A stretch of DNA of 64,000 nucleotides from an uncultured delta proteobacterium (GTDB lineage Bacteria > Myxococcota > UBA727 > VGSZ01), in NCBI GenBank assembly GCA_963775425.1, contig CAVZJB010000009.1:80616-144615 (forward strand), read 5' to 3'. Position numbers and translations under genes: made by a program. Every line of letters starts with the position of its first letter. Position 1 is the stretch's first letter. The notes beneath the pieces were generated by a model. That model had not been told where the DNA came from. It saw only the letters and a list, made by a program, of their open reading frames with translations, and did no database searches. Of the stretch, positions 6,587 through 43,373 are shown piece after piece.

Positions 6587-6647
6587 GAGATCCTGCCGCG
6601 TGCACGACGGCCGCCGTCCGCGCCGGGTGCCCGGCCGGACGGCGGTT

Positions 6648-6657
6648 GCGCATGCGC
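6648..6657. promoter_or_regulatory. Candidate TetR operator, the 10-bp palindrome GCGCATGCGC
   Basis: It is a perfect palindrome about 25 nt upstream of the TetR start. TetR regulators usually bind palindromes in their own promoters. Confidence 0.3.
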
Positions 6658-6680
6658 GCAGATCCGAACATGCAGTCCCC

Positions 6681-24438: not shown

Positions 24439-25058
24439 GTCGTGCTCGAGCGGCGCCCGGGCGCACGGCGGACGGCGGCCACGAAGGCTTCGCGCGCCAG
24501 GCGCAGGCGGGAGTAGAGGGTGTTGAGCGGCGCGTCGACGACGCGGGCGATCTCGGGCATCGACAAGCCCTCGAGCTCGTGCAGCACGAACACCGCGCGC
24601 TTGTCGAGGTCGAGCCCGTCGAGCGCACGCATGACCTCCTCGTGCGCCTCGCGCGCCTCGACGACGTCGTCGGCGGGGCGGTCGCGGGCGGGCACGCGGT
24701 CGCCGGCGCCCTCCACCAGGGACTCGCGGAAGCTCGAGGCCTTGCGCTTCTTGTCGAGCGCCACGCGAAAGCAGATGCCGAACAGCCAGGGCTTGGCGGG
24801 CCGCGCGGGGTCGTAGTCGCCGAGCTTTCGGTGCACGACGACGAACACGTCGTGGGCCAGGTCCGGCAGGTCCGCGTCCGGGATGCCGAGCCGGCGCAGC
24901 GAGCGCCACACGTACCCGAAGTGCTCCTGGTACAGCGCCGTGAACGAGGCCGCCGCGCGCACGTGCGCCGCGTCCGTCGGCGGCGGCAGCGGCAGAGGCT
25001 CGGTGATGGCGGCACCGTCCACCGCGGGGGTTTGGGGCAGGGCGCCGGTCTCCGTCAC
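24435..25058 (-). CDS. ECF-subfamily RNA polymerase sigma-70 factor
   Basis: It has region 2 (ALYQEHFGYVWRSLRRLG…DLAHDVFVVVH) and region 4 (DKRAVFVLHELEGLSMPEIARVVDAPLNTLYSRLRLAR). Confidence 0.85.
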   Translation of the reverse strand: MTETGALPQTPAVDGAAITEPLPLPPPTDAAHVRAAASFTALYQEHFGYVWRSLRRLGIPDADLPDLAHDVFVVVHRKLGDYDPARPAKPWLFGICFRVALDKKRKASSFRESLVEGAGDRVPARDRPADDVVEAREAHEEVMRALDGLDLDKRAVFVLHELEGLSMPEIARVVDAPLNTLYSRLRLAREAFVAAVRRAPGRRSSTT

Positions 25059-28872: not shown

Positions 28873-29040
28873 TCAGGGGGCGGCGGTGGGGACGGGCGTG
28901 TCGGGCGTCTTGCGCTCGGCAAACCAGATGGCGATGCCGAGGGCGACCGCGGAGATCACGAGGACCACGACCAGGTGGCGGCCCACCCCGGTGGGCCGTG
29001 GCAGCCGCGTGCCGAACATGGAGCGCTCGGCGGTCACCAT
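28873..29040 (-). CDS. Possible small membrane protein of 55 aa
   Basis: It has high GC3 and a single hydrophobic helix (LVVVLVISAVALGIAIWF). Confidence 0.3.
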   Translation of the reverse strand: MVTAERSMFGTRLPRPTGVGRHLVVVLVISAVALGIAIWFAERKTPDTPVPTAAP

Positions 29041-29225
29041 CTGGTCGGGGTCATGTGGCTCGGGCACGCCCCGAGGCTACCGCATCCGGAGCCACCCGAA
29101 GCAAGCGCGGGGGCGCCGCGCCCGGGAGCCCCGGTTCGTGGCGGACGGGCGGTCAAGCCCCAAAAGGAGCGCGGCGGAAGCTGCCGCCGGAGTCGTCCGC
29201 CGCTCCGGGCGCGCGGAGCGCGCGG

Positions 29226-29290
29226 CTGTTCGTGAGCGTCAGCGAACAAAAAAGGGAGCCGTCGCCGGCGTTGAAACAACGCCGACGACG
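29226..29290 (-). terminator. Candidate intrinsic terminator downstream of sctT
   Basis: The minus strand reads cgtcgtcggcgttg-ttt-caacgccggcgacg, a 13-bp stem, then ggctcccTTTTTTgtt. Confidence 0.35.
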
Positions 29291-29468
29291 ACCGAAAGCG
29301 GCGACCTCTCCCGTCGACGCCCGGACACAGCGTTTCCCCCCTCGGCTCGCCTCGCGGCGGGCCGTCACCTGATGCCCCCCGAGCTCCGCTGTGTCCGACC
29401 CCGACGCTGAACCTAACGAGGACGCGGCCGCGCGCAGGGCTCGCGTGTGGATCGATCACGCGTGCGCC

Positions 29469-30290
29469 TCAGCTGAGGAGCTTGATGATGTCGTCGACGT
29501 GGCCCAGCATGATCACCGAGTTCTTCAGCATGGTCTGGATGAACAGGTCGATGCAGAGGAAGAACACGATGCAGCCGCCGATGACCTTGGCGGGCATGGC
29601 CATGAAGTACGCGTTGATCTGCGGGGCCACGCGGTTGATGAGGCCGAAGGACGTCTCGAGCGTCAGCGTGACGATGCCGATGGGCATGGCGAGGAGCACC
29701 GCGATCTCGAGGATCTCGGCGGTGAGCCGCGCGTTGTACTCGACGAAGGCGGCGTAGCCGGCGTGGAAGTGCGGGAAGTCGTTGATGGGGACCGCGACGA
29801 AGCTCTCGAACAGCGACGCCAGGAACGGGTGGTGCAGATCCAGCGCCAGGAACAGGGCGAGCAGCAACTGGTACTGCAGCGTGCCGAACGCCGACGAGCG
29901 CTCCTCGATCTCGGGCACCTGCAACTGGATCTGGTTGGCGCCGCGCAGGATGTCGATGAGCTGGCCGGCGATCTCCACGGTGTAGAACACCTTGGACGCG
30001 ACGAAGCCGATGACGAGGCCGACGAAGGTCTCCTTCATCATCATGAGCGTGAACCCGATGGGCGTGATGGGCAGCCCGTGCTCCGGGCTGACGTTGGCGA
30101 GCACCGTGGGCCACAGCAGGATGGTGAGCGTGACGCCGACGCCCATCTTCACCTCGACGGGCGCGTTCTTGCCGCCGAGGAACGGCACGAGGACGACCAT
30201 GGCCATGATCCGCGCCATGATCAGCGCGAACACGACGATGGTCTTCGTCATGTCGAGCTGCTGCGCGAGTGCAGCCATGAAGTTCTGCAC
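29469..30290 (-). CDS. sctT: Type III secretion export apparatus protein SctT (FliR/YscT family)
   Basis: At 273 aa it is a polytopic membrane protein with the FliR/SctT pattern (…FLASLFESFVAVPINDF…MPIGIVTLTLETSFGLINRVAPQINAYFMAMP…). Confidence 0.8.
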   Translation of the reverse strand: MQNFMAALAQQLDMTKTIVVFALIMARIMAMVVLVPFLGGKNAPVEVKMGVGVTLTILLWPTVLANVSPEHGLPITPIGFTLMMMKETFVGLVIGFVASKVFYTVEIAGQLIDILRGANQIQLQVPEIEERSSAFGTLQYQLLLALFLALDLHHPFLASLFESFVAVPINDFPHFHAGYAAFVEYNARLTAEILEIAVLLAMPIGIVTLTLETSFGLINRVAPQINAYFMAMPAKVIGGCIVFFLCIDLFIQTMLKNSVIMLGHVDDIIKLLS

Positions 30291-30298
30291 GGCCGCTC

Positions 30299-30571
30299 CT
30301 AGTGGATCACGTCGGGGATGCTCCCGAGGCAGAGCGTCGCGAAGCGAAGCATCGTGGCCCCGAGCCAGCCGCCGGTGGCGGCGAGCACCGCGAAGACGGC
30401 GATCATCTTCGGGACGAAGGAGAGCGTCTGCTCCTGGATCTGCGTCGTCGCGGAGAACACCGCGACCAGCACGCCGATGAGCAGGCTCAACAAGATGGGG
30501 GGCATCGACACCACGATGGTGATGAGGATGGCCTCGTTCGTGATTTGAACGATGAAGTCCTGGACGGTCAT
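30299..30571 (-). CDS. sctS: Type III secretion export apparatus protein SctS (FliQ/YscS family)
   Basis: The 90-aa product MTVQDFIVQITNEAILITIVVSMPPILLSLLIGVLVAVFSATTQIQEQTLSFVPKMIAV is the typical FliQ hairpin. Confidence 0.8.
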   Translation of the reverse strand: MTVQDFIVQITNEAILITIVVSMPPILLSLLIGVLVAVFSATTQIQEQTLSFVPKMIAVFAVLAATGGWLGATMLRFATLCLGSIPDVIH

Positions 30572-31437
30572 TGGTACCCCAAGACGAGGCCGCGGGTGAT
30601 GAGGTACCACCCGTCTACGAGGACGAAGAGCAATATCTTGAACGGCAGCGAGATGGTTGTCGGCGACAGCATCTGCATGCCGAGCGCCATCAATATGTTC
30701 GACACCACCATGTCGATCACCAGGAACGGCACGAAGATGATGAAGCCTATCTGGAAGGCCTTGGTGAGCTCGCTGATGACGAACGCGGGCGTGATGATCA
30801 CGAGGTCGTCGGGCTGAAGCGACGCGCGGTCCTCCTCGGCGCGCAGCCGATAGGCGACGCGATAGAGCATCTGGCGGTTCTTCTCATTGCTGTTTTTGAG
30901 GAGGAACGCCTTGATGGGCTCCTTGGCCTGCTTGAGCGCGTCGACGATGATGTCGACGTTCTCCTTCTGCAGGAGGTCGCCGCCGCGTCTTATCTCGATG
31001 AGGCGGTCGACGCGGTTGTAGATCTGCAGACCCACGGGCTGCATCACGTACGCGGTGAGGATGATGGCCATGCCCGTGATGACGGTGGTGGGCGGCGCCT
31101 GCTGCGTGCCGATGGCCTGGCGGGTGATGGACAGGACCACCGCGATCTTGACGAAGCTCGTCACCATCATCCCGACGAAGGGGATGAGGGCGAGGCCCGC
31201 CATGGCCGTCATGAGGATGAGCGGGCGGTTGGAGATGGAGTCGTTGCCGAGGAGGTCGACGCCGCCGACGGTGGCGCCGTGGGCGATGCCGCGACCCTTG
31301 GCCAGGGCGACGCACGGCGCGAGCGACACGACGAAGAAGACGAACGTGGCCCAGCCCACCCCGCGGGCGAAGCGCAGGGTGCGCGGCTCGTCCTTGTGGT
31401 GTCCGAAGCAGGAGCGGAGGGCTTCGCGGAGCTTCAT
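30568..31437 (-). CDS. sctR: Type III secretion export apparatus protein SctR (FliP/YscR family)
   Basis: It has the conserved FliP core (PLILMTAMAGLALIPFVGMMVTSFVKIAVVLSITRQAIGTQQAPP…FVPFLVIDMVVSNILMALGMQMLSP). Confidence 0.85.
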   Translation of the reverse strand: MKLREALRSCFGHHKDEPRTLRFARGVGWATFVFFVVSLAPCVALAKGRGIAHGATVGGVDLLGNDSISNRPLILMTAMAGLALIPFVGMMVTSFVKIAVVLSITRQAIGTQQAPPTTVITGMAIILTAYVMQPVGLQIYNRVDRLIEIRRGGDLLQKENVDIIVDALKQAKEPIKAFLLKNSNEKNRQMLYRVAYRLRAEEDRASLQPDDLVIITPAFVISELTKAFQIGFIIFVPFLVIDMVVSNILMALGMQMLSPTTISLPFKILLFVLVDGWYLITRGLVLGYQ

Positions 31438-32153
31438 GCGGTGGCCTTCTCGTCGTCGTTCGTCTTCTTGGCGTCGCGGCGCCTGAGGGCGTCCATGAAG
31501 GACGGCGGCGGCGCCGCCGCGGCCTTGGTCTCCACGTCCTTCAGGAGCGTGACGCCGCCCTCGCCGGCGGCGAGCAGCATCTGCTTGCCGTCGACCTCGA
31601 CGAGGAAGAGCGAGCGCTTGGCGTCGAGGCCGACGCGCTCGACCACCTTGACCCGCCTGCCGAGGTTCTGGCGCTCGACGAGCTTGCCGAGCCCCTTGGA
31701 CAGCGTGAGGTACACGAGCCCGAGGACGATGCAGAGCATCAAGATGGTCTTCAAGAGCGGCCCGACGAGGTCGCCGAGCCCCGACTGCGGCGCCGGCAGC
31801 GGCTTGAGCGCGTCCGGATCCGGCGGGGGCGCCGGGGGCACCTGCGGCGCGGCGTGTGCCGCCGGGTTTGCCGCTGCGTCCCCGTCGTCCGCGCGCGCGG
31901 CGGCGACGTCCGCGCCGGTCGCGGGCGCCGCGTCGTCGTCGCCGGCGGGGTCGTCGCCGACGCCCGGCGGCGGCAGAACGAGCTTCACGGCGTCGTCGGC
32001 CGTGGCGTCGTCGTCGGCGGCGTGCGCGGCGGCGGTGCCGCCGAACGGCGCGCTGTCGCCGGCGTTGTCGGCGAGCGCGGGGCCGGCGAGCGCGAGCCCG
32101 ACGACGACGAGCATGGGCGACGGGAGGGAGCCACGCTGGAGCTTGCTGATCAC
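31434..32153 (-). CDS. FliO-like export-gate accessory protein with an N-terminal signal peptide and an Ala/Asp-rich spacer
   Basis: The TM and C-terminal region (LLKTILMLCIVLGLVYLTLSKGLGKLVERQ…RSLFLVEVDGKQMLLAAGEGGVTLL) follow the FliO pattern. Its stop overlaps the sctR start. Confidence 0.5.
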   Translation of the reverse strand: MISKLQRGSLPSPMLVVVGLALAGPALADNAGDSAPFGGTAAAHAADDDATADDAVKLVLPPPGVGDDPAGDDDAAPATGADVAAARADDGDAAANPAAHAAPQVPPAPPPDPDALKPLPAPQSGLGDLVGPLLKTILMLCIVLGLVYLTLSKGLGKLVERQNLGRRVKVVERVGLDAKRSLFLVEVDGKQMLLAAGEGGVTLLKDVETKAAAAPPPSFMDALRRRDAKKTNDDEKATA

Positions 32154-32263
32154 GGCCGCAGCTTAGCGCGCCGCGCTCCAGGCGTGGCGAGCGCCCCCGT
32201 CCGCGCGTGGGGCCGGGCCTACATCCGCGCCGGACCCCGGGCGGACGCCACGCGGGTGCCGGG

Positions 32264-33727
32264 TCATTTGACGAGGGAGAGGATCCGGACGCCCAGCTCG
32301 CCGTCGATCTCGACGAGCTCGCCCTTGCCGACGCGCTTGCCGTCGACGACGAGGTCCACGGGCTCGCCGGGGGCGCGCGACAGCTCGATGACCTGGCCCG
32401 CGCGCAGTTGGACGACGTCGGCGGCGGAGACCATCACGCGGCCGAGCTCGACGACCATCGCCACGGTGATGTCGTCGAGGAGGCCCGCGGCCTCGGGCGA
32501 GGGCTCGTCCTCGGGCTCCTCTTCCCCGTCGGAGTGCTCGGCCCCCGGCTCGTCGTCGACCGCGGTGCCACCCGGGAGCGGCGCGCCCCCGCCGGCGTCG
32601 TCGATGGGGGCGGCGACGCGGTCGGCGGCCTCCCGGCGCAGCCGGGACCCGAAGGCGTCGGCGTCGACGAGACCCGCAGCGGACAGCCGCTTGGCGTTTT
32701 CTTCCATCTCCCCGCCTTCTACCTCGCCGAAGCCCTCGTGGAACAGATGCGCCTTTGCGCGCGGCTCGCCCGCGGGCGAGATGGCCTCGATCTGGACCTC
32801 GTAGCGCCCGCTGTCGCCGACGACGAGCGCGCCGGAGATGACGCCGCGGTGCCCGTCGCCGAGCCGGCACTGCACGCGGCCGCTCAGCGTTTGCGGCTGG
32901 TCCTCGTCCTCGGGCGGCACGATCGTCACTTCGCTCTCCTCGACGAGGATGATGTCGTCGATCTCGAGGGACTCCACGTCCGCCATCTGCAGACCGATGC
33001 GGCCTACCTCGACCACGAGCGGCGCCGTCAACAGCCGCACCACGTCGATGCGCTCGTCGAGCCGGCGGAGCCAGCGCGACAAGGCCGGGCCCTCCGCGGG
33101 GACGTCGGGCGAAAACGCGTCGCGCACGAAGCTCTCCGGCAAGTAGACGCGGCAGAAGCCCACCTTGACGTCGAAGAACAGCCGGAAGCTCAGGCACAGC
33201 AGGGGCGCGTCGACCGGGAAGCGCTCCGCGAGCGACGCCATGGTCCCGTGGACCCCCTCGAGCTTCAACGCCACGTCCTTGTCGGCGGCCCCCTCCTGCA
33301 GGAGCTGCAGCACGCGCAACAGCACGAAGGAGAACACGCCGTCCTCGATCTCCGACAGCGGCCTTTGTCCGTCGGCGTCCTCGGCGTTCCCCCCGAGGAG
33401 CTTGTCGATGGCCTGCTGCGCCACGGTGAGATCCACCTCGAGGAGCGCCTTCTCGGTGCGCGGCGGCAGCCCGATGACGGCGGCGCACGTGGGCTCCGCG
33501 AGGACCTGCGCGAGCTCTCCGTCGCCGAGCGCGCGCACGCCCTCGAACCACAGCTCGACGTCCGCGTGGACGAGCGGCCCGAGCATGTCCTTGAGCCAAT
33601 CCTTGAAGTCGCTCTCGAACGCCGTCTGCGGTAGGTGACACAACAGCGCGTTTTGCACCTGCACCTGCCGGCGGCTGATGCGGGGGAGCGTTCCCTGCAG
33701 CTTGAACTTGCGGAGCTTCCTCGCCAT
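32264..33727 (-). CDS. sctQ: Type III secretion cytoplasmic-ring protein SctQ, with a SpoA (FliN/YscQ) C-terminal domain
   Basis: The C-terminal ITVAMVVELGRVMVSAADVVQLRAGQVIELSRAPGEPVDLVVDGKRVGKGELVEIDGELGVRIL is a SpoA domain. Confidence 0.7.
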   Translation of the reverse strand: MARKLRKFKLQGTLPRISRRQVQVQNALLCHLPQTAFESDFKDWLKDMLGPLVHADVELWFEGVRALGDGELAQVLAEPTCAAVIGLPPRTEKALLEVDLTVAQQAIDKLLGGNAEDADGQRPLSEIEDGVFSFVLLRVLQLLQEGAADKDVALKLEGVHGTMASLAERFPVDAPLLCLSFRLFFDVKVGFCRVYLPESFVRDAFSPDVPAEGPALSRWLRRLDERIDVVRLLTAPLVVEVGRIGLQMADVESLEIDDIILVEESEVTIVPPEDEDQPQTLSGRVQCRLGDGHRGVISGALVVGDSGRYEVQIEAISPAGEPRAKAHLFHEGFGEVEGGEMEENAKRLSAAGLVDADAFGSRLRREAADRVAAPIDDAGGGAPLPGGTAVDDEPGAEHSDGEEEPEDEPSPEAAGLLDDITVAMVVELGRVMVSAADVVQLRAGQVIELSRAPGEPVDLVVDGKRVGKGELVEIDGELGVRILSLVK

Positions 33728-34803
33728 CAGTCCTCGAAGACCTCGCGGATATCTTCCTTGATCTCGTCCACGGCTTCCTTTTTCTTGCCGGGGAAAAGCA
33801 GGCTGAGCCCGATCCCGGCCCCCAACAATCCACCCACGACGACGAGTGACAACGGGGTCGGCACGTGGGTCGGCGCCTCGGGCCACACCCAGGCGAGGAG
33901 CGGCAGGCACATCTTGGCCCCGATGAAGCCGAGCACCAAGCCGAGCGCCGGCTTGAGGAACCGGAGCCCCCACAGCGCGCCCGACAGCAGGAAGAACAGC
34001 GACCGCAGGCCCAGGATGGCGAAGATGTTCGAGGTGTAGACGATGAACGGGTCCAGGGAGATGCCGAACACGGCGGGGATGGAGTCGAGCGCGAAGACCA
34101 CGTCGCTGAGCTCGACCGACACGAGGACGAGCAGGAGCGGCGTGGCCTTCCTGACGCCCTCTTTGAGCGTGAAGAAGCGGTGGCCGTCGTAGCTGTCGGT
34201 GACGCGGACGAAGCGGCGGGCGAGCTTGACGACGCGGTTGTCCTTGACGTCGCCTTCGTCGTCGCCGCCGCGCTCGACGATGAGCTTGATGCCGCTGTAC
34301 AGGAGGAACGCGCCGAAGACGTAGATGAGCGCGTGCACCGTGGACAGAAGCGCGGTGCCGCCGATGATGAACACGCCGCGCAGGACGACGGCGCCGAAGA
34401 TGCCCCAGAACAGCACGCGGTGCTGGTAGGCGTCGGGGACCTTGAAGGCGTGAAACAGGAGCAAGAAGACGAAGAGGTTGTCGACGGACAGCGAGTACTC
34501 GATGACGTAGGCCGAGAAGAACTCGAGGCCGCTCTCACGGTCCGACAGCACGAGGACGGCGACGCCGAACCCGCAGCCGAGCGTCACCCACACGATGGTC
34601 CACGCGAGCGCCACGCGCTTCTTCATCGGCGCGTCGCTGCGGCTCCCGATCCACAGGTCCACCGCCAGCACCACGACGACGATGGCCGTGAACGCGATCC
34701 ACAGCGCCGGGGTGCCGATGGAGTGCACCCGGGGGAAGTACCCGCTGAGGGGACGGGTGCCAAGCAAGACCCGCGGCGCAGCGATGCGCGGGCGCGCGCC
34801 CAC
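33727..34803 (-). CDS. TerC family integral membrane protein. The start is uncertain; a GTG near 34724 is possible.
   Basis: It has the TerC signature YSLSVDNLFVF plus repeated TM topology. Its stop overlaps the sctQ start (TGATG). Confidence 0.75.
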   Translation of the reverse strand: MGARPRIAAPRVLLGTRPLSGYFPRVHSIGTPALWIAFTAIVVVVLAVDLWIGSRSDAPMKKRVALAWTIVWVTLGCGFGVAVLVLSDRESGLEFFSAYVIEYSLSVDNLFVFLLLFHAFKVPDAYQHRVLFWGIFGAVVLRGVFIIGGTALLSTVHALIYVFGAFLLYSGIKLIVERGGDDEGDVKDNRVVKLARRFVRVTDSYDGHRFFTLKEGVRKATPLLLVLVSVELSDVVFALDSIPAVFGISLDPFIVYTSNIFAILGLRSLFFLLSGALWGLRFLKPALGLVLGFIGAKMCLPLLAWVWPEAPTHVPTPLSLVVVGGLLGAGIGLSLLFPGKKKEAVDEIKEDIREVFED

Positions 34804-34809
34804 GCTTCG

Positions 34810-35715
34810 TCAGCGGGTCTCGAGGCGGGCCAGCGACAGGCCCTTCTTGTCGAGGCGGCGCATGAGGTCTCCCTTGGAAGCCTCGATGAGCCGCTTGCTG
34901 TTCTGATCGAGGTTCTCGAAGCGCAGCGAGACCTTGCCGTCCTCGGCGGACACGCGCATGCGCGCGCCCTTGAGCGGGCCGTCCTTCAGCTCGATCTGGA
35001 ATTCCTTGAGGCCCTTGTCGTTGACGGCGAGGTGCACGGCGCTGACGAGCTTGTCGAGGAGCTCGGCGGGGATCTGCTTGACCTCGTGCGCCGGCGCCGC
35101 CCCCTGCGCCGCCTGCAACTGAGCGGCCTTGACGGCGCCGAGCGCGCCGGCGCCCTCGCGGCCGCGCCCGTCGGACTCGCCCTTGCCGTCGGCGTCGATG
35201 GCGGCGTTGGGCAATGCGGCGTTGCGAGCGTCGAGCTGCACCGCCTCCGCGTCCATCTCCTTGGCCGTCTCCTTCTTGTCGAGGTCGACCTTGCGATCGT
35301 CGCGCTCGACGCGGTCGTGCTCGACGCCCTGCTGGCGCCGCACGAAGCGGCCCGTGTCCGCCGACTGCGTCGCCGTGGCGTTCTTGTTGAGCACGCCCTG
35401 GAAGCCCTTGGCCTGCTGCATCGCGCGCGTCTGCTTCTGGATGCCGCTCCTGGCGAGGCGCGCGGCCTGGGCCTCGCTGTGGGCCTCCTTGGCGACGTGC
35501 TCGCCCTCCTGCTCGGCGTGGTGCTCCTCGTGCTGCGCCTTGAGCGCCTTGTCCTTCGTCGTCTCGGCGGTGCGCTGCCCGGCGCGCACCAGCTTGCCGA
35601 ACGCCGCACGGTTCTTCTCGGTGGACTTGGCGTCGCGGGCGTTCTTGTCGAGCTTCTTCTGGAGCCGCTCAGCCTCCGCCCTTTTGTGGGCGTCTTCTTC
35701 GACACGCGTGGACAT
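34810..35715 (-). CDS. sctP: Hook/needle-length control protein, FliK/SctP-like with a Flg_hook C-terminal domain
   Basis: The N-terminus is a charged coiled-coil. The C-terminus (…LLDKLVSAVHLAVNDKGLKEFQIELKDGPLKGARMRVSAEDGKVSLRFENLDQNSKRLIEAS…) matches the FliK C-terminal domain. Confidence 0.6.
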   Translation of the reverse strand: MSTRVEEDAHKRAEAERLQKKLDKNARDAKSTEKNRAAFGKLVRAGQRTAETTKDKALKAQHEEHHAEQEGEHVAKEAHSEAQAARLARSGIQKQTRAMQQAKGFQGVLNKNATATQSADTGRFVRRQQGVEHDRVERDDRKVDLDKKETAKEMDAEAVQLDARNAALPNAAIDADGKGESDGRGREGAGALGAVKAAQLQAAQGAAPAHEVKQIPAELLDKLVSAVHLAVNDKGLKEFQIELKDGPLKGARMRVSAEDGKVSLRFENLDQNSKRLIEASKGDLMRRLDKKGLSLARLETR

Positions 35716-35802
35716 GAAAAACCCCGGTGAAAAGCATCGCGGAGTGTATCGGCGCCGCCGCCGACGGGGGTGCGACCCCGTCATGACGCGGCGCGCCGTC
35801 CG

Positions 35803-36054
35803 TCAGCGACGCGCGGCGGCGAGCTCCTCGCGGAGCTTTTCGATCTCCTCGCGGAGCTTCTCGTTTTCGCGCTGGACCTCGTCGGCCGTGGGCGGCGGCG
35901 GGTCCTCCTTGGCGGCGGCCCCGTCGCGCGGCCCCAGGCGCTTTTTCATGTGCGCGCCGGCGACCTTGGCGATCTCCACGCCGACGCCCGCCAAAAGCGC
36001 CTTCCCCAGCGTGCGCCCGAGCTCCGCGATGACCTTTCCCACGGAGGCGTTCAT
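35803..36054 (-). CDS. Small coiled-coil protein of 83 aa
   Basis: High GC3. Its start overlaps the sctO stop. The C-terminus reads ENEKLREEIEKLREELAAARR. Confidence 0.4.
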   Translation of the reverse strand: MNASVGKVIAELGRTLGKALLAGVGVEIAKVAGAHMKKRLGPRDGAAAKEDPPPPTADEVQRENEKLREEIEKLREELAAARR

Positions 36055-36563
36055 GCGTCACCGAGCTCCTCGAGGAGCTTCTGGAAGTACTGGGCCTGCG
36101 CGATGTCCTCGGCGGCCATCTCTTCCTTCAGCATGCGCTCGCGCTTCACCTGCTTGAGCCACTTTTCCTTGTGCTTCTCGAGGGCTTTGAAGTCCTGCGT
36201 ACATTTCACGACAACTTCCATGGCTTCGGCGGCGATGCGCTCGGCTTCCTGAACGCGCTCTTGCTGCCTGTCGATGTCCACCTGGTAGGCCTCTTCCTGC
36301 TGCTTGAGTCGCTCGATGTGCCGGTCGTTTTGCTGGATCTGGCTCACGGTGTACTCGCCCATGCGGGTGCGCTCGGCGTACTCGGCCTTCTTGTTCTGGC
36401 GCATCTGCACCATCTCTCTGAGCTTCTGGCGCATCTCGTCGAGCTTGCGCTCCTCCTCGACGACCTTCCTGCGCTTCTCCGCGTAGGCCTCCTCGGCCTC
36501 CTTCTTCTTCTTCTCCCGCATCTCGTAGAGGACCTGCAGGCGGTACGCCGGCGACTTGGCCAT
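36051..36563 (-). CDS. sctO: SctO/FliJ-like stalk protein, all coiled-coil, 170 aa
   Basis: Its size, all-helical Lys/Glu/Arg-rich composition and position (downstream of the ATPase, upstream of sctP) match SctO/FliJ. Confidence 0.5.
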   Translation of the reverse strand: MAKSPAYRLQVLYEMREKKKKEAEEAYAEKRRKVVEEERKLDEMRQKLREMVQMRQNKKAEYAERTRMGEYTVSQIQQNDRHIERLKQQEEAYQVDIDRQQERVQEAERIAAEAMEVVVKCTQDFKALEKHKEKWLKQVKRERMLKEEMAAEDIAQAQYFQKLLEELGDA

Positions 36564-36637
36564 ATGGGATGAGATTACCGTCTGCTCGCGGCGGCGTCAT
36601 TGCACAGGCCGCTTCCGGGCGTGGTACGTGCTGCTCT

Positions 36638-38417
36638 GTGTCGCTCCCGGGCACGGCGCTCTTCTTCGCCCTCCTCGCGGTCGTCGTCGCGGGCGTGGCA
36701 GGCGCCCTGCGGCGCCTGCAGGCCGGCCGGCCTTCCACCGCGGCCGCGGCGGCGCTGGCCGTCCTGGCGGTGGGCCCGGACCTGCTCGGGCGCCCCTTTC
36801 ACGACGTCGGCGCCGGCCTGTGTCTCACTTCAGTCCTGTGCGCGCCGGGCGTCCTCTTTTTGCGCCGCCCCGCCCCGGCGCGGACGGGCGACCCGCGCGC
36901 GCCGGGCCCTCCGCTCGACGCGCTCGCCGCCGCCCTCGCGCTCCTCCTGTTCGCGGGCATCGCCTGGGTGACGCTCACGACGTTCCTCTGGGACGAGCGC
37001 AGCACGCACTTCGGGCTCGCCTCCGTCGTCGCCAGGGGCGGGTTGCCGGTGTTTCACCCCGAGTTCCCCGGCGCGGCGTTTTCGTACCACGCGGGCTTCG
37101 ACGTCATCGCCGGCGCCGTCCGGCGCTTCACGCGGCTGCCCATCGAGCGCTGCATCGACGTCGTCGGCCTCGCCGCCGCGGCGTCGCTGCTGTGGACGCT
37201 CCTCGACATCGGCCGCGACCTCGGCGGACGCGCCGGCGCGCGCCTCGCCCCCGCGCTCGCGCTGCTCGCCTACGGCCCGCTCTCCCTGTGCACCGGCGTG
37301 GTCTACGGCCTCGATCCCGCGTGCAGCGCCCTGTTCCCCGCGTCGTGGCAGCACACGGCCTGGCTGCCGGCGCCGGTGATTCTCGAATTTCTTCCAACAC
37401 CCGCAGGCCCTCGGCATGGCGGTCGTCCTGCCCGCGCTCGTCCTCGGCAGCGACGACGACCAAAAGCGCTTCGGCGCCGGCGTCGCCCTGCTCGCGCTGG
37501 CGTCACAGGCGCACGTGGTGCTCTTCGGGCTCGCCGGCCTCGGCCTCGCCGCCGTCGTCGTCGCGCGCACCGTGCGCACGCGGGCCGTGGCCGCCGGCGC
37601 CGTCCGCGGCGCCGCGCTCCTGGGCGCGCTCGCGTTCGCGCTCCTCGCCGGCGGCTTCTTCCATACGCCGGAGGCGCCCGCGCGCTTCCTGTGGGTCGGG
37701 CACTTCCGCGCCGCGTTCCACGCCGGCGTCCTCGGGAGCATCGCGCTCAACCTGGTGCTGTTCGCGCCCGCCCTCGCCACGCTGCCGTTCGCGGTCTTTC
37801 GCGCGCGAGCCGGCGGGCTGCGCCTCGCGCTCGTCGTCGCCGCCGCCGCCGGGTTCATCGCCGGCAACGTCGTCAGCTACGAGCGGAGCTGGGACATCGT
37901 GAAGCTCTTCGGGGCCGCCGCCTTCTGCGCCAACCTGCTCCTCGCCGACGTGCTGGCGGCCGCCGTCGCGCGCGTGCGGCCCGCCGTCGTCGCCTGCGTC
38001 GCCGCCGCCTGCGCCGTCGCCGGCGGCGTGTGGCTCGTGCGCTTCGGCCCGCTCAACGGCGCCATCGCCCCGCGCTACACCGAGCGCGCGCCCGCGCCGC
38101 TCGCGCGCGACCTCGACGCGCGCTTCGGCGACGTCGTCGGCCTCGCGCCCGTCCTCACCGACGCGCCGCAGATCCAGGAGCTCGGCTTCGCCCTCGTCGG
38201 GTTCGACTGGCGCGACGCCAGCGTCGGCTTCCTCGTCGACCGCGACCGCCGCGACGCCCTCACCAAGCTGCGAGACCGCGCGCTCACGTCGCTGTCGCTC
38301 GCCGACGTGCGCGCCACGGGAGCGCGCTTCGTGCTCGTGCGCGCCGGGCGCGCCGTGGACCCCGCGCTCGAGCGCGTCGGCGACGTCGACGACCACGCGC
38401 TCTACCGCGTGCCCTGA
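36638..38417 (+). CDS. Polytopic integral membrane protein with a large C-terminal soluble domain, possibly GT-C-like, and an apparent +1 frameshift near 37375–37395
   Basis: GC3 support covers two adjacent frames (36638→~37385 and ~37380→38417). The switch lies in an unusually AT-rich stretch, gtgattctcgaatttcttccaacac. Confidence 0.45.
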
Positions 38418-38421
38418 TTCT

Positions 38422-39855
38422 TCAGTCCTGGGCGTCCGCGAACATCTCCACCAGCGCCTGCACCGTGTCCTCGAACGCGGAGGCCTCCGTGGTGCCCTGC
38501 TTGAGGAACGTCTCGACCTCTTCGATCTTGTCGATGGCGTAGTCGACCTGCGGATCGGTGCCGTACTGGTACGCGCCGAGGAGGATGAGGTCGCGGTTCT
38601 TCTCGTAGGTGGCCATCACCTGCCGCATCTTGGACGCGGCCTTTTTGTGCTCGTCGGCGGCGATGCCGGTCATCACGCGGGACAGCGACGGCAGCACGTC
38701 GATGGCGGGCCAGTGGTTTCGCGCGCCGAGCTCGCGGTTGAGGATGACGTGGCCGTCGAGGATGCCGCGCACCTCGTCGGCGATGGGCTCCTCCATGTCG
38801 CCGCCTTGCACGAGGATCGTGTACATCGCGGTGATGGAGCCGATGTGGTTGTTGCCGGTGCGCTCCATGAGCTTCGGGATGAGCGCGAACACGCTCGGCG
38901 GGTAGCCCTGGCGCGCAGGCGGCTCGCCGAGCGCGAGGCCGATCTCGCGCTGCGCGCGGGCGAAGCGGGTGGAGCTGTCCATCATGAACAGGACGTCCTT
39001 GCCCTCGTCGCGGAACCACTCCGCCACCGCCGTGGCGACGAAGCAACACTTGAGGCGCACGAGCGAGGGCTGGTCCGACGTGGCGCACACGACGACGGAG
39101 CGCTTGAGGCCCTCTTCGCCGAGGGAGTCGTGGATGAACTCGAGCACCTCGCGACCGCGCTCGCCGACCATGCAGACCACGACGATCTCGGCGGAGGTCT
39201 GCCGCGCGATCTGTCCCATCAACGTCGACTTGCCGACGCCGGAGCCCGCGAACAGGCCGACGCGCTGGCCGCGGCCGACGGTGAGCAGGCCGTCCCACGC
39301 GCGCACGCCGAAGGAGATGACGCGATCGACGGGTTGGCGCGTGTAGGGATCGGGGCACTCGCGCTCGACGGCCCAGTCCTCGAGGCCCTCGATCTCCTCG
39401 ATGGAGCCGAGGCCGTCGATGGGCTCGCCGGTGCCGGAGAGCGTTCGGCCGAGCAGGCCGTAGCCGCACTTGATCTGGAACGGCTTGCCGCTCGGGATGA
39501 CCTCGCTCTCGGGGCCGAGCCCGGCGTTCTTGGGATTGCCGAGCGGCATCAAGAAGACGGCGCCGTCCTTGAAGCCGACGACCTCGGTCTTGAGCGCGCC
39601 GACGTCTTCCTTGGGCGACGTCACGTAGCACATCTCGCCGATGCGCACGCCCGGCACCGCAGCCTTGATGATGAGGCCGGTGACCTCGGTGACGCGGCCG
39701 CGGACGCGGTACGGCTTGGCCTCGCGGATCTCCTCGATGGCCCGACGCAGCTCGATGACCTTGCCCTCGGGGACGCCGTCGACGTGGGGCGCGGGCTCGC
39801 CGACGAGGTTCTCCTCAAGGGCGTCGAAGTCCGGCTTCTTGCGCGTGGTGGTCAT
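38422..39855 (-). CDS. sctN: Type III secretion ATPase SctN (FliI/YscN family)
   Basis: It has Walker A (GLFAGSGVGKSTL), Walker B (VLFMMDSSTRFA) and the F1/T3SS ATPase fold. It is 477 aa. Confidence 0.9.
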   Translation of the reverse strand: MTTTRKKPDFDALEENLVGEPAPHVDGVPEGKVIELRRAIEEIREAKPYRVRGRVTEVTGLIIKAAVPGVRIGEMCYVTSPKEDVGALKTEVVGFKDGAVFLMPLGNPKNAGLGPESEVIPSGKPFQIKCGYGLLGRTLSGTGEPIDGLGSIEEIEGLEDWAVERECPDPYTRQPVDRVISFGVRAWDGLLTVGRGQRVGLFAGSGVGKSTLMGQIARQTSAEIVVVCMVGERGREVLEFIHDSLGEEGLKRSVVVCATSDQPSLVRLKCCFVATAVAEWFRDEGKDVLFMMDSSTRFARAQREIGLALGEPPARQGYPPSVFALIPKLMERTGNNHIGSITAMYTILVQGGDMEEPIADEVRGILDGHVILNRELGARNHWPAIDVLPSLSRVMTGIAADEHKKAASKMRQVMATYEKNRDLILLGAYQYGTDPQVDYAIDKIEEVETFLKQGTTEASAFEDTVQALVEMFADAQD

Positions 39856-42026
39856 TGGCCCTTGAGGATCGCCCTCACCTTGGAGGCGTCCTCCGCGTCG
39901 GGCTTGAGCTCGAGGTACTTCCGGTAGTGCTTGCGCGCGAGATCGTTCTTCTTGAGCTTGGCGTAGGCCACGCCGAGCGTGCGGTGCACGTTGGCGTTGT
40001 TGCCGTTGACGTAGGGCGCGAGCTCGCTCACGGCGGCGCCGGGATCGCCCGCGAAGATCTTCTGGGTGGCGCTGCTCAGCGCCTTGTTGATCTCGGCCTG
40101 CTTGTTGTGGTGCGTGACGCGGGGCTCGTCGGTCTTGCGCTTGTGCTTGGGCTCCGCTCGCACGGCGTGCCCGCCGCTGTCGCCCGCGGCGTCGTCGGCG
40201 GCGGCGAGGGCGGCGTCGTCGTCCGCGCCCGCGGCGGCGCCGTCGTCATGCGCGTCGCCCGGGGCGGCGTCGTCGTGCGCGGCGGCGTCGTCTGCGCCCG
40301 CGGCGGCGGCGGCGGCGGCGGGCGCGTCGTCCCCGGTGGGGCCGACGTCGGGCTTGGCGCCGCTGCCGTCCGGGACGGGCGCCGTGTCGGGCGTCGTCGG
40401 CGTCGGTGAGGCCGCGGCGGTGGGTGGGGGCGGCGTGGGCTTGTCGTCGCCGCCGCTCGTGGCGACGAGCACGGCGATCACCGCGAGCAGCGCGATGACG
40501 ACGACGACGCCGATGACGATGATGTTCGGGCGGCCGCTCGGCTGCGAGAAGCCCTCGAACGGCGCCGCCGACACCGCGTCCGCCTGCTTCTTGCGAACGG
40601 GGTTGGTGACCCCGGTGCCGGCGTCCTGCTCGAAGTCGTCGCCGGCGGTGTCGGCGATGCGGGCGCGCTCGATCTCCTCGGGGGAGACGGCGAAGCGCTC
40701 GCCGATGGCGACGAAGCGAAGGCGGACGCGGCCGAGCTCGACGACGTCGCCGGGCTTCAACACGGCCTGCTCGACCTCCTCGTTGTTGACGAGGACGCCG
40801 TTGGCGCTCTTGAGATCGAGGATGCGCACGCGATCGCCCTCGCGCACCACCTTGGCGTGGTTTCGCGAGACCGACTTGTGCTCGATGGTGATGTCGTTGT
40901 CCTCGGTGCGCCCGAGCACCGCCTCCGCCGCACGCAGCGAGAAGGTGCTGCCCGCGAAGATGGTGTTGAGCACCACCAGGCGCGGGTACACCACGTCCTC
41001 GGCGCCGGGCGCGGCGCGCATGGCCTCGGTCTGCTCCTCGAGGGCGGTGCGTGCGTCGTTGGGACGCGCCGGCGCCGCCGGCGTCCCCGGCGCGCGCCCG
41101 TTGTCCGGCGACGGCGTGGCCGGCCGCGCGTCGGGGGCGCGGTCCTGCGCCCGCGGCTCGGGCTTGGTCTCGAGCACCCCGACGTGGCCGCCGATCTCGG
41201 GCACCGCCGCCGTCGGCGATCCCTCCGCCTTGTGCGCCACCGCCTTGTGCGCCGCCGGCGGCGGCGCGGGCGGCATGGTGATGGGCGGCGGCGACGTCGC
41301 CTGGCGCACCGTGGGCTCGAGCTCGGCCTCGCGCTGTCGCGACGGCAGCGCCGCGGCGTCCACAGTGGGCGCCTCCATGGCTTCGAGCATCTCCATGGTG
41401 ACGCGCTCGGTGTCGCCGCCGTCGGGATCGAAGCCGCTCCGCGCGTTGCTGCCGTTTTCCGGCGCCGGCTGCGGCGCGGGCTGCGCCCCCGCGACCGCGG
41501 GCGACGGCACCGTGCGCTCGTCGCTGAGCGGGTGATCTTCCTGGGTGGCGAGCCCGGGCACCGACAGCGCGGGTCCGCCCTGCGGAGGCTCCCAACGCTG
41601 CGTGTCGCCGGCGAACTCGTCGTCGTCGGGGCCGTGGGGAGCGGTGTCGCGGTGCAGCGGCTGCGTGGCCTGGGCGCCCTCGGCCGCGCCGTTGTGCGGG
41701 TGTTGCGGCGCGGTCACGCCGAGGGTGTCCTGCGCGTGAAGCGCGAGGTGGTAGTCGCCGATCTGGATGGTGTCGCCCTCGTGGACGTGCACCCGGCCGT
41801 CGATGCGATCCCCGTTGAGCTTGATGCCGTTGAAGCTCTTCAGGTCCTCGATCAGGACGTGGCCGTTCTCCTTCGAGAGCTTGGCGTGGTTGCGGGAGAC
41901 GTTCCGCTCCGTGAGCCGGATGGTGTTCCCTTCTTTACGCCCGATGGTGATGACGTCGCGCGTGAACGGCACGACGATCTGCTTGCCCGCATCGTCTTCG
42001 ATGATCAGCTTCCAGGTCGAAGGCAT
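39852..42026 (-). CDS. Membrane protein with two FHA domains, one TM helix, a Pro/Ala/Asp-rich periplasmic region and a C-terminal TPR-like motif
   Basis: The two FHA cores are (ITIGRKEGNTIRLTERNVSRNHAKL…NGIKLNG) and (FSLRAAEAVLGRTEDNDITIEHKSVSRNHAKV…NGVLVNN). The TM is IIVIGVVVVIALLAVIAVLV. Its stop overlaps the sctN start (ATGA). Confidence 0.7.
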   Translation of the reverse strand: MPSTWKLIIEDDAGKQIVVPFTRDVITIGRKEGNTIRLTERNVSRNHAKLSKENGHVLIEDLKSFNGIKLNGDRIDGRVHVHEGDTIQIGDYHLALHAQDTLGVTAPQHPHNGAAEGAQATQPLHRDTAPHGPDDDEFAGDTQRWEPPQGGPALSVPGLATQEDHPLSDERTVPSPAVAGAQPAPQPAPENGSNARSGFDPDGGDTERVTMEMLEAMEAPTVDAAALPSRQREAELEPTVRQATSPPPITMPPAPPPAAHKAVAHKAEGSPTAAVPEIGGHVGVLETKPEPRAQDRAPDARPATPSPDNGRAPGTPAAPARPNDARTALEEQTEAMRAAPGAEDVVYPRLVVLNTIFAGSTFSLRAAEAVLGRTEDNDITIEHKSVSRNHAKVVREGDRVRILDLKSANGVLVNNEEVEQAVLKPGDVVELGRVRLRFVAIGERFAVSPEEIERARIADTAGDDFEQDAGTGVTNPVRKKQADAVSAAPFEGFSQPSGRPNIIVIGVVVVIALLAVIAVLVATSGGDDKPTPPPPTAAASPTPTTPDTAPVPDGSGAKPDVGPTGDDAPAAAAAAAGADDAAAHDDAAPGDAHDDGAAAGADDDAALAAADDAAGDSGGHAVRAEPKHKRKTDEPRVTHHNKQAEINKALSSATQKIFAGDPGAAVSELAPYVNGNNANVHRTLGVAYAKLKKNDLARKHYRKYLELKPDAEDASKVRAILKGQ

Positions 42027-42110
42027 CCGCGAGTGCGCACTCCTGGCCGGCATCATACGTCGACGAACAGGCCGGCCGCCAAGCCGTGACCGGCGCTGTG
42101 TTTGGAGACC

Positions 42111-43373
42111 CTATCGCACACCGCGGGCGATGTTCTTGCCCGCCGGCCACCGCCGGATGACGTCCAGGGCGGCGGCCACCTGCGGATCCCGCTTGACCCG
42201 CTCCGCCCCGTGGATGCCCGGCGGCAGATCCGCGGCCGGACGCACCGGGACGTCCGGCTCGATGCCGACGTCCTGGATGGAGCGCCCGCTCGGGGTGAAG
42301 TAGCGGGCGATGGTGAGCTTCAGCCCGGCGCCGTCGTCGAGCCCGAACAGCGTCTGCACCGATCCCTTGCCGAAGGTGCGGGTGCCGACGACCACGGCGC
42401 GCTTGTGGTCCTGGAGCGCCCCGGCGACGATCTCGCTCGCCGACGCGGTCCCGTCGTTCACGAGGAGCACCAGCGGGTAGTCCGGCTCCGTCCCCTCCGG
42501 CCGCGCCACCTCCCGCTCCGTGTTCCTCGGGTTCCTGCCCTGGGTGGTGACGATCAGGCCGTCTTTGAGGAAGCGGTCCGCCACGCGCACGCCCTCGTCG
42601 AGGAGGCCCCCGGGGTCGTCGCGCAGGTCGAGCACCACGCCCGCCGGCTGCTGTTTGCCGAGCGCCCGCGCCCGCTTGCGCGCCCCCGCCAGCGCGTGCG
42701 CCAGCTCCTGGTCGGTGCGCTCCTGGAACGCGCGGATGCGGACGTAGGCGATGTCGTTGCCGAGGTCGTCGTCGTCGACGGAGGGCACGCGCACCTGCCG
42801 GCGCACGAGCGGGATGTCCCGCGCATGATCCCAGCCCTTGCGCGCCACAGTGAGGACCACGCGGGTGCCGGGGACGCCGCGCATGAGCTTGACGCTGGCC
42901 TCGAGCGGCTGGCCGCGCATGCTCTCGCCGTCGACGGCGAGGATCTTGTCACCGGGCTTCAAGCCCGCGTGCGCTCCCGGGCTGTCCGCGTGCACGACCT
43001 CCACCTGGATGACGTCGCCGCCGGGCTCTTTGTAGGGCCCCACCTCGATGCCGAGCCCGCCGAACTCGCCCGCGGTGTCCTCGCGGAGCTTCTCGTACTC
43101 GGCGGGGCGCATGAAGGTCGTGTGGGGGTCGAGGCCGGAGAGCATGCCCGTGATGGCGTCGTAGACCAGCTCGTCCGGGTCGAGCTCGTCCACGTAGTTC
43201 TGCTGCACGTACGTGAGCACCTGCGAAAACACCCGCAGCTTCTTGTACGTGCCGTCGACGCCGCCGGCGTACGCGACGCCTGCGCCGCCGGCGAGGACGA
43301 CGCCGCACAACAGTCCTGCGACGAACGCAGCGAGGGAAGGCGTGCGGAACAGCGGGGGACGGCGCATGGACAC
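42111..43373 (-). CDS. Carboxyl-terminal processing protease, S41 family, with a PDZ domain
   Basis: It has the PDZ segment (GLKPGDKILAVDG), the S41 catalytic region (…LLVNDGTASASEIVAGALQD…GTRTFGKGSVQ) and an N-terminal signal/anchor. Confidence 0.85.
   Translation of the reverse strand: MSMRRPPLFRTPSLAAFVAGLLCGVVLAGGAGVAYAGGVDGTYKKLRVFSQVLTYVQQNYVDELDPDELVYDAITGMLSGLDPHTTFMRPAEYEKLREDTAGEFGGLGIEVGPYKEPGGDVIQVEVVHADSPGAHAGLKPGDKILAVDGESMRGQPLEASVKLMRGVPGTRVVLTVARKGWDHARDIPLVRRQVRVPSVDDDDLGNDIAYVRIRAFQERTDQELAHALAGARKRARALGKQQPAGVVLDLRDDPGGLLDEGVRVADRFLKDGLIVTTQGRNPRNTEREVARPEGTEPDYPLVLLVNDGTASASEIVAGALQDHKRAVVVGTRTFGKGSVQTLFGLDDGAGLKLTIARYFTPSGRSIQDVGIEPDVPVRPAADLPPGIHGAERVKRDPQVAAALDVIRRWPAGKNIARGVR

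Follow-up and report, generated by a model that had tools for sequence, protein, structure and literature searches.

Myxococcota are known to carry a system for type III secretion (T3SS), termed "Myxo," without a secretin and a needle (Abby and Rocha, 2012; PMC3459982). These secretin-less systems are thought to be living intermediates between the flagellum and the injectisome, and are needed for prey lysis in Myxococcus xanthus. Two systems have been described in M. xanthus, namely T3SS* (MXAN_2434–2464) and T3SS(2) (MXAN_5643–5654) (PMC3459982; PMC12075869; PMC10196010). T3SS* functions in predation (PMC12075869) and has been proposed to work with the Kil/Tad pilus in prey lysis (PMC12075869; PMC10849154), and FliO has been found inside the non-flagellar T3SS of Myxococcota, including both M. 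xanthus systems (PMC12248157). In Bradymonabacteria, the T3SS export genes are scattered, with five export-gate genes having unlinked locus tags and being induced during predation (PMC7460792). Here, we describe a T3SS-like export cluster in a stretch of 64,000 nucleotides (the window; positions 80,616 to 144,615 of contig CAVZJB010000009.1, assembly GCA_963775425.1, GC content ~71%) from an uncultured member of the Myxococcota. The cluster runs from an FHA-domain gene through sctN to sctT and ends there, and the locus is probably one part of a dispersed, secretin-less and needle-less apparatus of the "Myxo"/T3SS* type in an abundant, uncultured high-GC Myxococcota lineage. Secretin-less T3SS in Myxococcota, their role in prey lysis, the presence of FliO, and scattered export genes are already known; what is new here is a dispersed architecture in which an FHA protein occupies the place of fliH and a TerC gene is embedded.

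Gene content and boundaries of the cluster

Genes in the window were called with guidance from third-position GC content (GC3), and a Pfam search was run on ~50 called genes covering all those of at least 150 aa, leaving aside ~11 open reading frames (ORFs) of <150 aa. The cluster genes are listed first below in the order of transcription, together with one insert on the opposite strand, and are followed by the flanking features. TM denotes a transmembrane helix.

39852–42056, minus strand: FHA-FHA-TM-TPR protein, 734 aa (Pfam FHA E 1e-33, Yop-YscD_cpl E 1e-29)
38422–39855, minus strand: SctN/FliI-family export ATPase, 477 aa (Pfam ATP-synt_ab E 3e-84, T3SS_ATPase_C E 1e-26)
36569–38417, plus strand: polytopic membrane protein of ~600 aa, frameshifted (GC3 0.96–0.98, homologues)
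36051–36563, minus strand: SctO/FliJ-like coiled-coil stalk protein, 170 aa (Pfam YscO-like E 1e-18; FliJ match weak)
35803–36054, minus strand: 83-aa protein with a C-terminal coiled coil, no family (ORF and conservation)
34810–35784, minus strand: SctP/FliK-like protein (AlphaFold2/Foldseek; Pfam HpaP and Flg_hook below threshold)
33727–34803, minus strand: TerC-family integral membrane protein (Pfam TerC E 4e-49, 167 bits)
32264–33727, minus strand: SctQ sorting-platform/C-ring protein, 487 aa, with a FliM-like N-terminus and a FliN/SpoA C-terminus (Pfam FliMN_C E 3e-18, FliM E 4e-10)
31434–32153, minus strand: FliO-like assembly factor for the SctR/FliP pentamer (Pfam FliO E 3e-11, 43.5 bits, cut-off 22)
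30568–31437, minus strand: SctR/FliP export-gate subunit, 289 aa (Pfam FliP E 3e-67)
30299–30571, minus strand: SctS/FliQ export-gate subunit, 90 aa (Pfam Bac_export_3 E 2e-25)
29469–30290, minus strand: SctT/FliR export-gate subunit, 273 aa, with which the cluster ends (Pfam Bac_export_1 E 6e-52)
29247–29293 (stem-loop 29293–29257), minus strand: intrinsic-terminator-like hairpin (sequence)
28873–29067, beyond the hairpin: small membrane ORF
27513–28766, beyond the small membrane ORF: AlkZ/YcaQ glycosylase (Pfam)
42111–43373, minus strand, upstream of the FHA gene: S41 C-terminal processing protease with PDZ and Peptidase_S41 domains (Pfam Peptidase_S41 E 4e-55)

All eleven genes named in a preliminary description of this DNA are borne out on the minus strand by Pfam and NCBIfam, with SctP resting on a structure model, and so are the hairpin, the small membrane protein, and the YcaQ glycosylase after sctT and the S41 protease upstream of the FHA gene. 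For the FHA-FHA-TM gene, the position given there, 42026, falls on a Met within the ORF, which begins at 42056. The gene set of the reported ~12.8-kb array stands as well, but the array is not continuous, since a plus-strand pseudogene that had been overlooked lies in a gap of 1858 nt between sctN and sctO. Overlaps of 1–4 nt, said to mark most junctions, occur at five of the ten, with gaps of 6, 8, 18, 110, and 1858 nt at the others. The overlap is 4 nt between the FHA stop and the sctN start, between the 83-aa ORF and sctO, and between the FliO stop and the sctR start, and 1 nt between the TerC gene and sctQ. An alternative, 226-aa start of the FliO gene lies at 32114, as called on an identical public contig (L081).

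At the other end, SctT is of normal length, so it carries no FlhB fusion, and the hairpin follows 176 nt past the sctT stop, with a 17-bp stem (11 GC pairs), a 3-nt loop, and then a T6 tract (CCCTTTTTTG). In SctN, both the Walker A (AGSGVGKS) and Walker B (LFMMDS) motifs are intact, and a SctO-like gene directly follows sctN in relatives. The 83-aa protein has tblastn matches of 49–58% identity in four related loci (L001 and L084–L086), in one of which (L085) a 90-aa gene is called at that site.

The gene between sctO and sctQ, a position that is conserved, was assigned by fold. Its product scores below the Pfam thresholds for HpaP (22.3 bits) and Flg_hook (16.6 bits), so that the FliK-type Flg_hook domain reported earlier does not hold as a Pfam match but does as a modeled fold, and five of 13 orthologues match Flg_hook/HpaP. 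An alignment of the 13 orthologues showed a single conserved C-terminal block, for which a single-sequence AlphaFold2 model gave a predicted local distance difference test score (pLDDT) of ~90. The protein begins with a long helix, continues through a disordered stretch, and closes with the T3S4 (substrate-specificity switch) domain at aa ~235–324. Foldseek searches with this domain returned as the only significant PDB matches the C-terminal domain of FliK (2rrl, E 9e-5) and the switch domain of PscP (5cuk, E 3e-4, TM-score 0.69). By this modeled fold and its position, the product of 34810–35784 is shown to be a T3S4-domain switch protein.

Relatives and probable dispersal of the missing components

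Relatives were collected by a SctR-based scan with one genome per species (80 loci, numbered L001 onward together with those found later) and a metagenome scan with SctT (22 further loci, among which Ga0558120_00002 did not appear). Their synteny was examined by tblastn in flanks of ~10 kb around the locus (3.5–29 kb 3′ of sctT in clade A, defined below), and a neighbour-joining tree of SctR and SctT was built with 100 bootstraps. The closest relatives in the SctR scan (at most 82% identity) are all uncultured metagenome-assembled genomes (MAGs) labelled Myxococcota, Myxococcales, or Deltaproteobacteria, the closest named record being a Myxococcaceae MAG with a SctN of 70% identity. With dozens of independent contigs sharing this gene order, the pattern is not due to chance. 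Synteny and tree together define three clades. Clade A comprises the window, L001, L002, L005–L011, L019, and L042 (support 100), to which L014 and L020 are joined with a support of 70, and its layout is always N-O-(coiled coil)-P-[slot]-Q-FliO-R-S-T, ending at sctT.

The abrupt end after sctT noted in the preliminary description, without sctU, sctV, or sctJ nearby, was confirmed throughout the 64 kb, so these genes adjoin the cluster nowhere in the window. Local hidden Markov models (HMMs) built for FlhA and FlhB from flagellar loci and one relative, together with jackhmmer profiles for FliH, FliG-like, and SctJ/FliF-like proteins, detected no FlhA/SctV, FlhB/SctU, FliH/SctL, SctJ/FliF, or FliG in the 64 kb, where tblastn with clade-specific SctU, SctV, SctJ, and FliH sequences gave a best E of 0.13. 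The Pfam scan of window genes of at least 150 aa revealed no secretin and no other T3SS family; it found no needle or translocon protein either, with ORFs of <150 aa unscanned, so that a needle-size gene of ~80 aa could escape it. The window thus contains no Pfam family of the SctC secretin, the SctF needle, or the SctD/SctJ rings that would make it an injectisome locus. In the flanks of relatives, the local HMMs likewise found no secretin, needle, translocon, or rod, hook, and motor genes. Within 3.5–29 kb downstream of sctT in ~15 clade-A loci there is no FlhB or FlhA, and in no clade-A locus does a fliH gene precede sctN. With sctU, sctV, and SctJ absent from the window and all clade-A flanks, the export apparatus is incomplete at the level of the locus. 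The genes immediately after sctT in L005, L008, L009, and L010 were considered as truncated sctU genes and gave no match to the FlhB model; they show no similarity to the window or to each other, except for the L009/L010 pair. Read by eye, two of them are presumably NAD-dependent epimerases and one a TlyA-type methyltransferase.

Sister clades show what has left the clade-A locus. Clade B (support 89) has fliH immediately ahead of sctN, and among the sister-clade loci this holds for L017, L018, L021, L023, and L025. sctU follows 0–4.5 kb after sctT in L016, L017, L024, L025, and L051, with sctV also present in L017 and L024, and clade C has in addition SctJ-size FliF-like and FliG-like genes. 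This gene content indicates an ancestral order of the flagellar type, fliF-G-H-I-J-K-M/N-O-P-Q-R-flhB...flhA, the outer parts of which have been lost from the locus in clade A.

Evidence for components encoded away from the locus comes from several relatives. In the MAG GCA_030685175.1, a clade-A sctN (L114; product 87.3% identical to that of the window) lies on JAUXRK010000030 and a lone sctV (L113) on JAUXRK010000041, with the SctV being 72–76% identical to clade-B SctV, and the tetranucleotide correlation of the two stretches (0.988) was the highest among the pairs compared. sctV is an orphan in both L088 and L113, and sctN stands alone in both L087 and L114. In clade B, the SctV proteins P0148, P0168, and P0143 are encoded on the contigs of the R-S-T loci L015, L018, and L051, beyond the fetched flank. 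A Myxococcaceae MAG (L089, 8782–11907) has an orphan sctJ (a 275-aa YscJ_FliF gene) and a 203-aa gene of unknown family directly after rpsB-tsf, ~6.5 kb from sctN-sctO-sctP. In L082 (the 6.98-Mb contig Ga0558120_00002), the flanks of the window adjoin each other, that is, AlkZ and the small membrane ORF stand beside phosphoglucomutase-S41-FHA-sctN, and the sctO–sctT block is not at that site; it has therefore been moved or lost. MBI5496603 (SctN) and MBI5510807 (SctV) were discarded as a same-genome pair, their accessions being 14,204 apart and probably from different MAGs.

Around the orphan sctV of L088 (5676–13399) lie genes for a methyl-accepting chemotaxis protein, a PP2C phosphatase, and a factor of the sigma-70 family with weak similarity to those encoded beside flhA in flagellar loci; a co-oriented gene for a 416-aa membrane protein of unknown family follows the sctV. 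The PP2C phosphatase fits the FHA/kinase theme described below.

The cluster itself appears to be in use. The ratio of nonsynonymous to synonymous substitution rates (dN/dS) is 0.16–0.35 for sctN, O, R, S, and T relative to L085 and L001; dS is depressed by the extreme GC3 bias, which inflates dN/dS, and the values are a qualitative sign of constraint only. On these sequence comparisons, the core genes are under purifying selection. SctN is represented by >120 database protein clusters at 68–90% identity to that of the window. The C-terminal domain of SctU/FlhB is the target of T3S4 domains, and SctV/FlhA that of SctO/FliJ; the fact that the T3S4 protein and SctO have both been kept argues that SctU and SctV exist in this genome.

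The simplest account of the end after sctT, a stable clade-wide feature, is that sctU and sctV have dispersed, as found for sctV in one close relative and, we infer, in this genome. The cluster encodes the ATPase SctN, the stalk SctO, the switch SctP, the sorting platform SctQ, FliO, and the SctR-SctS-SctT gate core, and probably stops at sctT because SctV, presumably SctU, and any SctJ-type ring are encoded elsewhere in the genome. By analogy with the M. xanthus system, the assembled machine may transport proteins out through the inner membrane, possibly passing them to another envelope machine. A split apparatus with its U, V, and J genes elsewhere had been one suggestion of the preliminary description, the other being a reduced or repurposed module; the sctV of the clade-A MAG and the orphan sctV and sctJ of relatives speak for the split apparatus. 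Neither sctU nor sctJ was found in any clade-A genome.

Several points weigh against this preferred reading. Neither sctU nor sctV nor sctJ was located in the genome of the window, of whose source contig 64 kb were read. The link to sctV comes from one MAG, in which mis-binning or a second T3SS is possible; in the flanks and contigs examined, sctU, sctJ, and sctL were found in no clade-A genome; and the missing sctO–sctT block at the equivalent site of L082 could mean loss rather than relocation. The antisense pseudogene leaves promoter and transcription of sctO–sctT unexplained, and the roles given below to the FHA protein and TerC are ones that we infer.

The FHA protein, TerC, and inserted or neighboring genes

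The FHA protein contains two FHA domains with GR..SxxH..NG motifs (aa 39–82 and 382–420) and one TM helix (aa ~506–538), past which follow an acidic Pro/Ala-rich low-complexity periplasmic linker and a C-terminal TPR region. The nearest solved structures of its FHA domains are GarA, OdhI, and FhaA, all phosphothreonine readers, and NCBIfam TagH matches it weakly. The gene, which is also found upstream of sctN in L008, L082, and L084, occupies the slot held by fliH/sctL before sctN in clades B and C, which the preliminary description had missed. The protein shares with SctD (YscD/PrgH) an FHA-fold cytoplasmic N-terminal domain, a single TM helix, and a periplasmic part, and its match to Yop-YscD_cpl reaches E 1e-29. 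It differs, however, in having two FHA domains that are closest to phosphothreonine-binding FHA proteins, whereas SctD has a single FHA fold that does not bind phosphopeptides; moreover, no periplasmic ring-building domains were found beside the FHA fold and TM helix. With a linker and TPR region in their place, the protein is therefore no canonical SctD.

A Ser/Thr protein kinase gene (45249–46874, minus strand) lies between the phosphoglucomutase and CDF transporter genes and is missing in the otherwise syntenic L084; its product is a candidate writer for the two phosphothreonine-binding FHA domains. Kinase genes also adjoin the cluster in L009, L010, L018, L030, and L036. Type VI secretion is under threonine-phosphorylation control by Fha1/TagH together with PpkA/PppA. 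By analogy, the FHA protein may tether or gate the ATPase complex at the membrane through phospho-dependent docking upon Ser/Thr-kinase signaling. The two cases have in common an FHA protein with canonical phosphothreonine-binding residues encoded with a secretion ATPase and a Ser/Thr kinase gene nearby; they differ in the secretion system and in the makeup of the protein, which here would combine a pair of FHA domains with a TM helix and a TPR region in the periplasm.

TerC fills the sctP–sctQ slot also in L001, L002, L004–L006, L042, L085, L090, L094, and L095, is fixed there among the inner members of clade A (bootstrap 83), and has a dN/dS of ~0.3. The TerC proteins of Bacillus load metal onto exported enzymes (PMC10550928), suggesting an accessory role here, in which the in-operon TerC might supply metal to exported enzymes. 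Elsewhere, the slot holds an IpgD-like gene (L025), Kup (L013), or a molybdopterin oxidoreductase (L016), and these large genes, considered as possible sctV, were thereby rejected. The IpgD-like gene (L025, 5234–7393, Pfam E 3e-29) belongs to a relative labelled Bdellovibrionales. IpgD is an inositol-phosphate phosphatase effector, and the L025 product might be a T3SS substrate built into the cluster, with a eukaryote as its target.

The insert that splits sctN from sctO is a 1.86-kb plus-strand gene with a +1 frameshift, caused by an inserted T near 37377. Its frame A (36569–~37378) aligns with residues 6–234 of the homologue P0379 at 52% identity, and its frame B (~37380–38417) with residues 255–565 at 50%. 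The family consensus PPVISNFFQHPQ bridges the break in this membrane-protein pseudogene, which points to a single extra T near 37377. The homologues are polytopic proteins of 565–660 aa in a family of 66 representative clusters without a Pfam match, one member being faintly similar to DUF2298. The annotated start of the antisense gene and the sctO start are separated by ~5 nt, and none of the related loci examined has the gene; the inserted membrane protein is not part of the secretion system. Other inserts occur at this junction elsewhere, namely a same-strand PMT_2-like gene in L084–L086 and, in L082 (11420–20337), a 9-kb BatD/VWA/DUF58/MoxR operon after sctN on the opposite strand. Homology between the window insert and the PMT_2-like protein of L085, which would imply an inversion, was rejected, since tblastn found nothing and hhalign gave a probability of 0.6%.

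Further insertions were observed in relatives. In L001, the closest species-level relative of the window, an AAA_14/DUF4143 ATPase gene lies between sctQ and fliO (6294–9033), and in L022 another lies directly after sctT (11907–13040), which suggests a mobile gene landing repeatedly in these clusters. In L085 (9983–11494), a protein with a Cys-rich motif, a (Gly-Glu)n repeat, and thrombospondin-like Asp repeats is encoded between sctS and sctT. It is the third of its type, the other two being lipoprotein-like products of the window (11278–12456, plus strand, and 17353–18465, minus strand) with a Cys-rich N-terminal motif and then a long (Gly-Glu)n repeat; one protein of this type contains Laminin_G_3.

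The S41 gene lies 54 nt upstream of the FHA gene, and the pair is kept in L008, L082–L084, L014, and L020. In L020, it is preceded by ftsE-ftsX-M23, and this ftsE-ftsX-M23-ctp block weakens the case for a dedicated role of the protease in the system; it is probably a Ctp with a housekeeping function, retained through synteny. By Pfam, the non-cluster genes of the window are housekeeping or unrelated genes, for example, those for Obg, SerRS, a PAS histidine kinase, an ECF sigma factor, phosphoglucomutase, the Ser/Thr kinase, the CDF transporter, and a cytosine/purine permease. Beyond the AlkZ gene (24435–27009, minus strand), genes for an ECF-type sigma factor, a 358-aa protein without a Pfam match, and a leucine carboxyl methyltransferase-family protein form a tight run, with a 4-nt overlap between the first two. 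At 7379–10165, ~19 kb downstream of sctT, genes for a PilZ-domain protein and a triple-PAS histidine kinase are grouped with a 123-aa ORF, which we take, from its sequence by eye, to resemble a response-regulator receiver.

Alternative readings and comparison with known systems

The cluster might instead belong to a truly reduced apparatus, with clade A having dispensed with SctL, the SctJ/SctD rings, and perhaps SctU, and with the FHA-TM protein holding the ATPase at the membrane beneath a minimal SctRST(+SctV) gate, as a ring-less, phospho-regulated exporter. This reading is favored by the failure to find fliH/sctL, sctJ, fliG, or sctU next to any clade-A locus, by an FHA-TM gene in the exact fliH position and translationally coupled to sctN, by sctV being the only component shown elsewhere in a clade-A genome, and by purifying selection on the core genes, which indicates that what remains is in use. 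However, the flanks in view spanned 10 kb, and genes missing there may still lie elsewhere in the genome; the cluster keeps its T3S4-domain protein, whose known partner is the C-terminal domain of SctU/FlhB; and a related MAG contains an orphan sctJ. We know of no T3SS that works without SctU, and a reduced apparatus is unlikely. An elaboration of it, a kinase-switched ring-less exporter in which the FHA-TM-TPR protein would dock SctN, SctO, and SctQ on a bare SctRST-SctV gate in place of SctL, SctJ/SctD, and perhaps SctU, with TerC metalating the substrates, we consider quite unlikely.

That the locus is a decaying remnant, a T3SS-like cluster breaking up whose remaining genes form no working machine, is very improbable. 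The inserts at the N/O junction do differ by genome (a pseudogene here, the PMT_2-like gene in L084–L086, and the 9-kb Bat/MoxR operon in L082), sctN is orphaned in L087 and L114, foreign genes have entered between sctQ and fliO (L001) and between sctS and sctT (L085), and earlier annotation treated the M. xanthus loci as relics (PMC3459982). In the window, however, the core genes are all undisrupted, and the sole pseudogene is the unrelated inserted membrane protein; the dN/dS values given above, SctN proteins 83–90% identical across many contigs with intact Walker motifs, and a gene order kept across a deep clade are likewise at odds with decay.

The relation to flagella was assessed by phylogeny and family scores. 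In the neighbour-joining tree, each of the 100 bootstrap replicates separates the Myxococcota group and two Hrp-type non-flagellar systems (L046 and L049) from every flagellar sequence. In NCBIfam, SctR scores 226 bits with yscR (above the cut-off) vs. 192 with fliP (below), SctS 81 bits with SctS (above) vs. 80 with FliQ (below), and SctQ 101.4 bits with SpaO_YscQ (cut-off 100.8); SctN scores 587 bits with SctN vs. 575 with FliI_clade2, each slightly below the cut-off, and SctT 144 bits with FliR vs. 134 with SctT, both below. These scores agree with a non-flagellar placement, but are borderline, with SctR, SctS, and SctQ passing the Sct cut-offs alone, and SctN and SctT passing neither. Against solved structures in the PDB, SctR is nearer to FliP (160 bits) than to SpaP (124 bits), with SctN equidistant from FliI and EscN, and in the SctR scan SctR is ~41–46% identical to gammaproteobacterial FliP. 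SctN, SctQ, SctR, SctS, and SctT thus appear, from a neighbour-joining tree of two proteins, to be homologues on the non-flagellar side close to the flagellar root, and an intermediate position has been described for the "Myxo" systems (PMC3459982). The mixture of flagellar and T3SS traits pointed out in the preliminary description is real, but its FliO component had been published (PMC12248157), and N-O-P-Q-R-S-T is merely the order shared with fliI-J-K-M/N-O-P-Q-R. It is extremely improbable that the locus is a fragment of a canonical flagellar locus (fliI-J-K-M/N-O-P-Q-R) of a flagellated organism, because the flagellar gene order, FliO, the FliM domain in SctQ, the higher score of SctR with solved FliP, and the slightly higher score of SctT on the FliR model are outweighed by the grouping of SctR and SctT with non-flagellar systems, by the Sct equivalog cut-offs that SctR, SctS, and SctQ alone pass, by the occurrence of FliO in Myxococcota non-flagellar T3SS, and by the lack of matches to FliF, FliG, FliH, rod, hook, filament, and Mot genes in the 64-kb window, and to rod, hook, filament, FliF, FliG, and Mot genes in the flanks of relatives.

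Apparatuses of this kind are widespread among uncultured Myxococcota from freshwater and groundwater. Even extreme dispersal of its genes is tolerated by the system, so that cluster-based detectors requiring co-located core genes will under-call it. The FliG-like and SctJ-size genes of the sister clades bear on what the transition between flagellum and injectisome kept, and the replacement of FliH by an FHA protein and the cargo slot between sctP and sctQ provide leads on the regulation and substrates of these machines.

Compared with the flagellar export apparatus (FliHIJ, FliOPQR, and FlhAB), the locus agrees in gene order, in having FliO and a SctQ of the FliM/FliN type, and in its T3S4 domain of the FliK type; it differs in being without FliF, FliG, FliH, rod, hook, filament, and motor genes and in its non-flagellar SctR and SctT phylogeny. 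Likened to the "Myxo"/T3SS* systems by gene content and by the placement of SctR and SctT, it belongs to an uncultured freshwater/groundwater lineage rather than the Cystobacterineae, and whereas the published short and long loci hold the whole apparatus and SctJ (with SctD in the long one), U, V, and J are not at this locus, the place of fliH/sctL before sctN is taken by an FHA-FHA-TM-TPR gene, and a TerC gene is embedded in the operon. Common to both are the SctN/O/P/Q/R/S/T core, FliO, and a Myxococcota host, and no secretin, needle, or translocon genes appeared in the window scan. The Chlamydiales differ in having complete injectisomes with a secretin and needle, neither of which was found in the window. 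With the dispersed T3SS of both Chlamydiales and Bradymonabacteria, the apparatus would share core genes that are spread over several loci yet retained (PMC3459982; PMC7460792).

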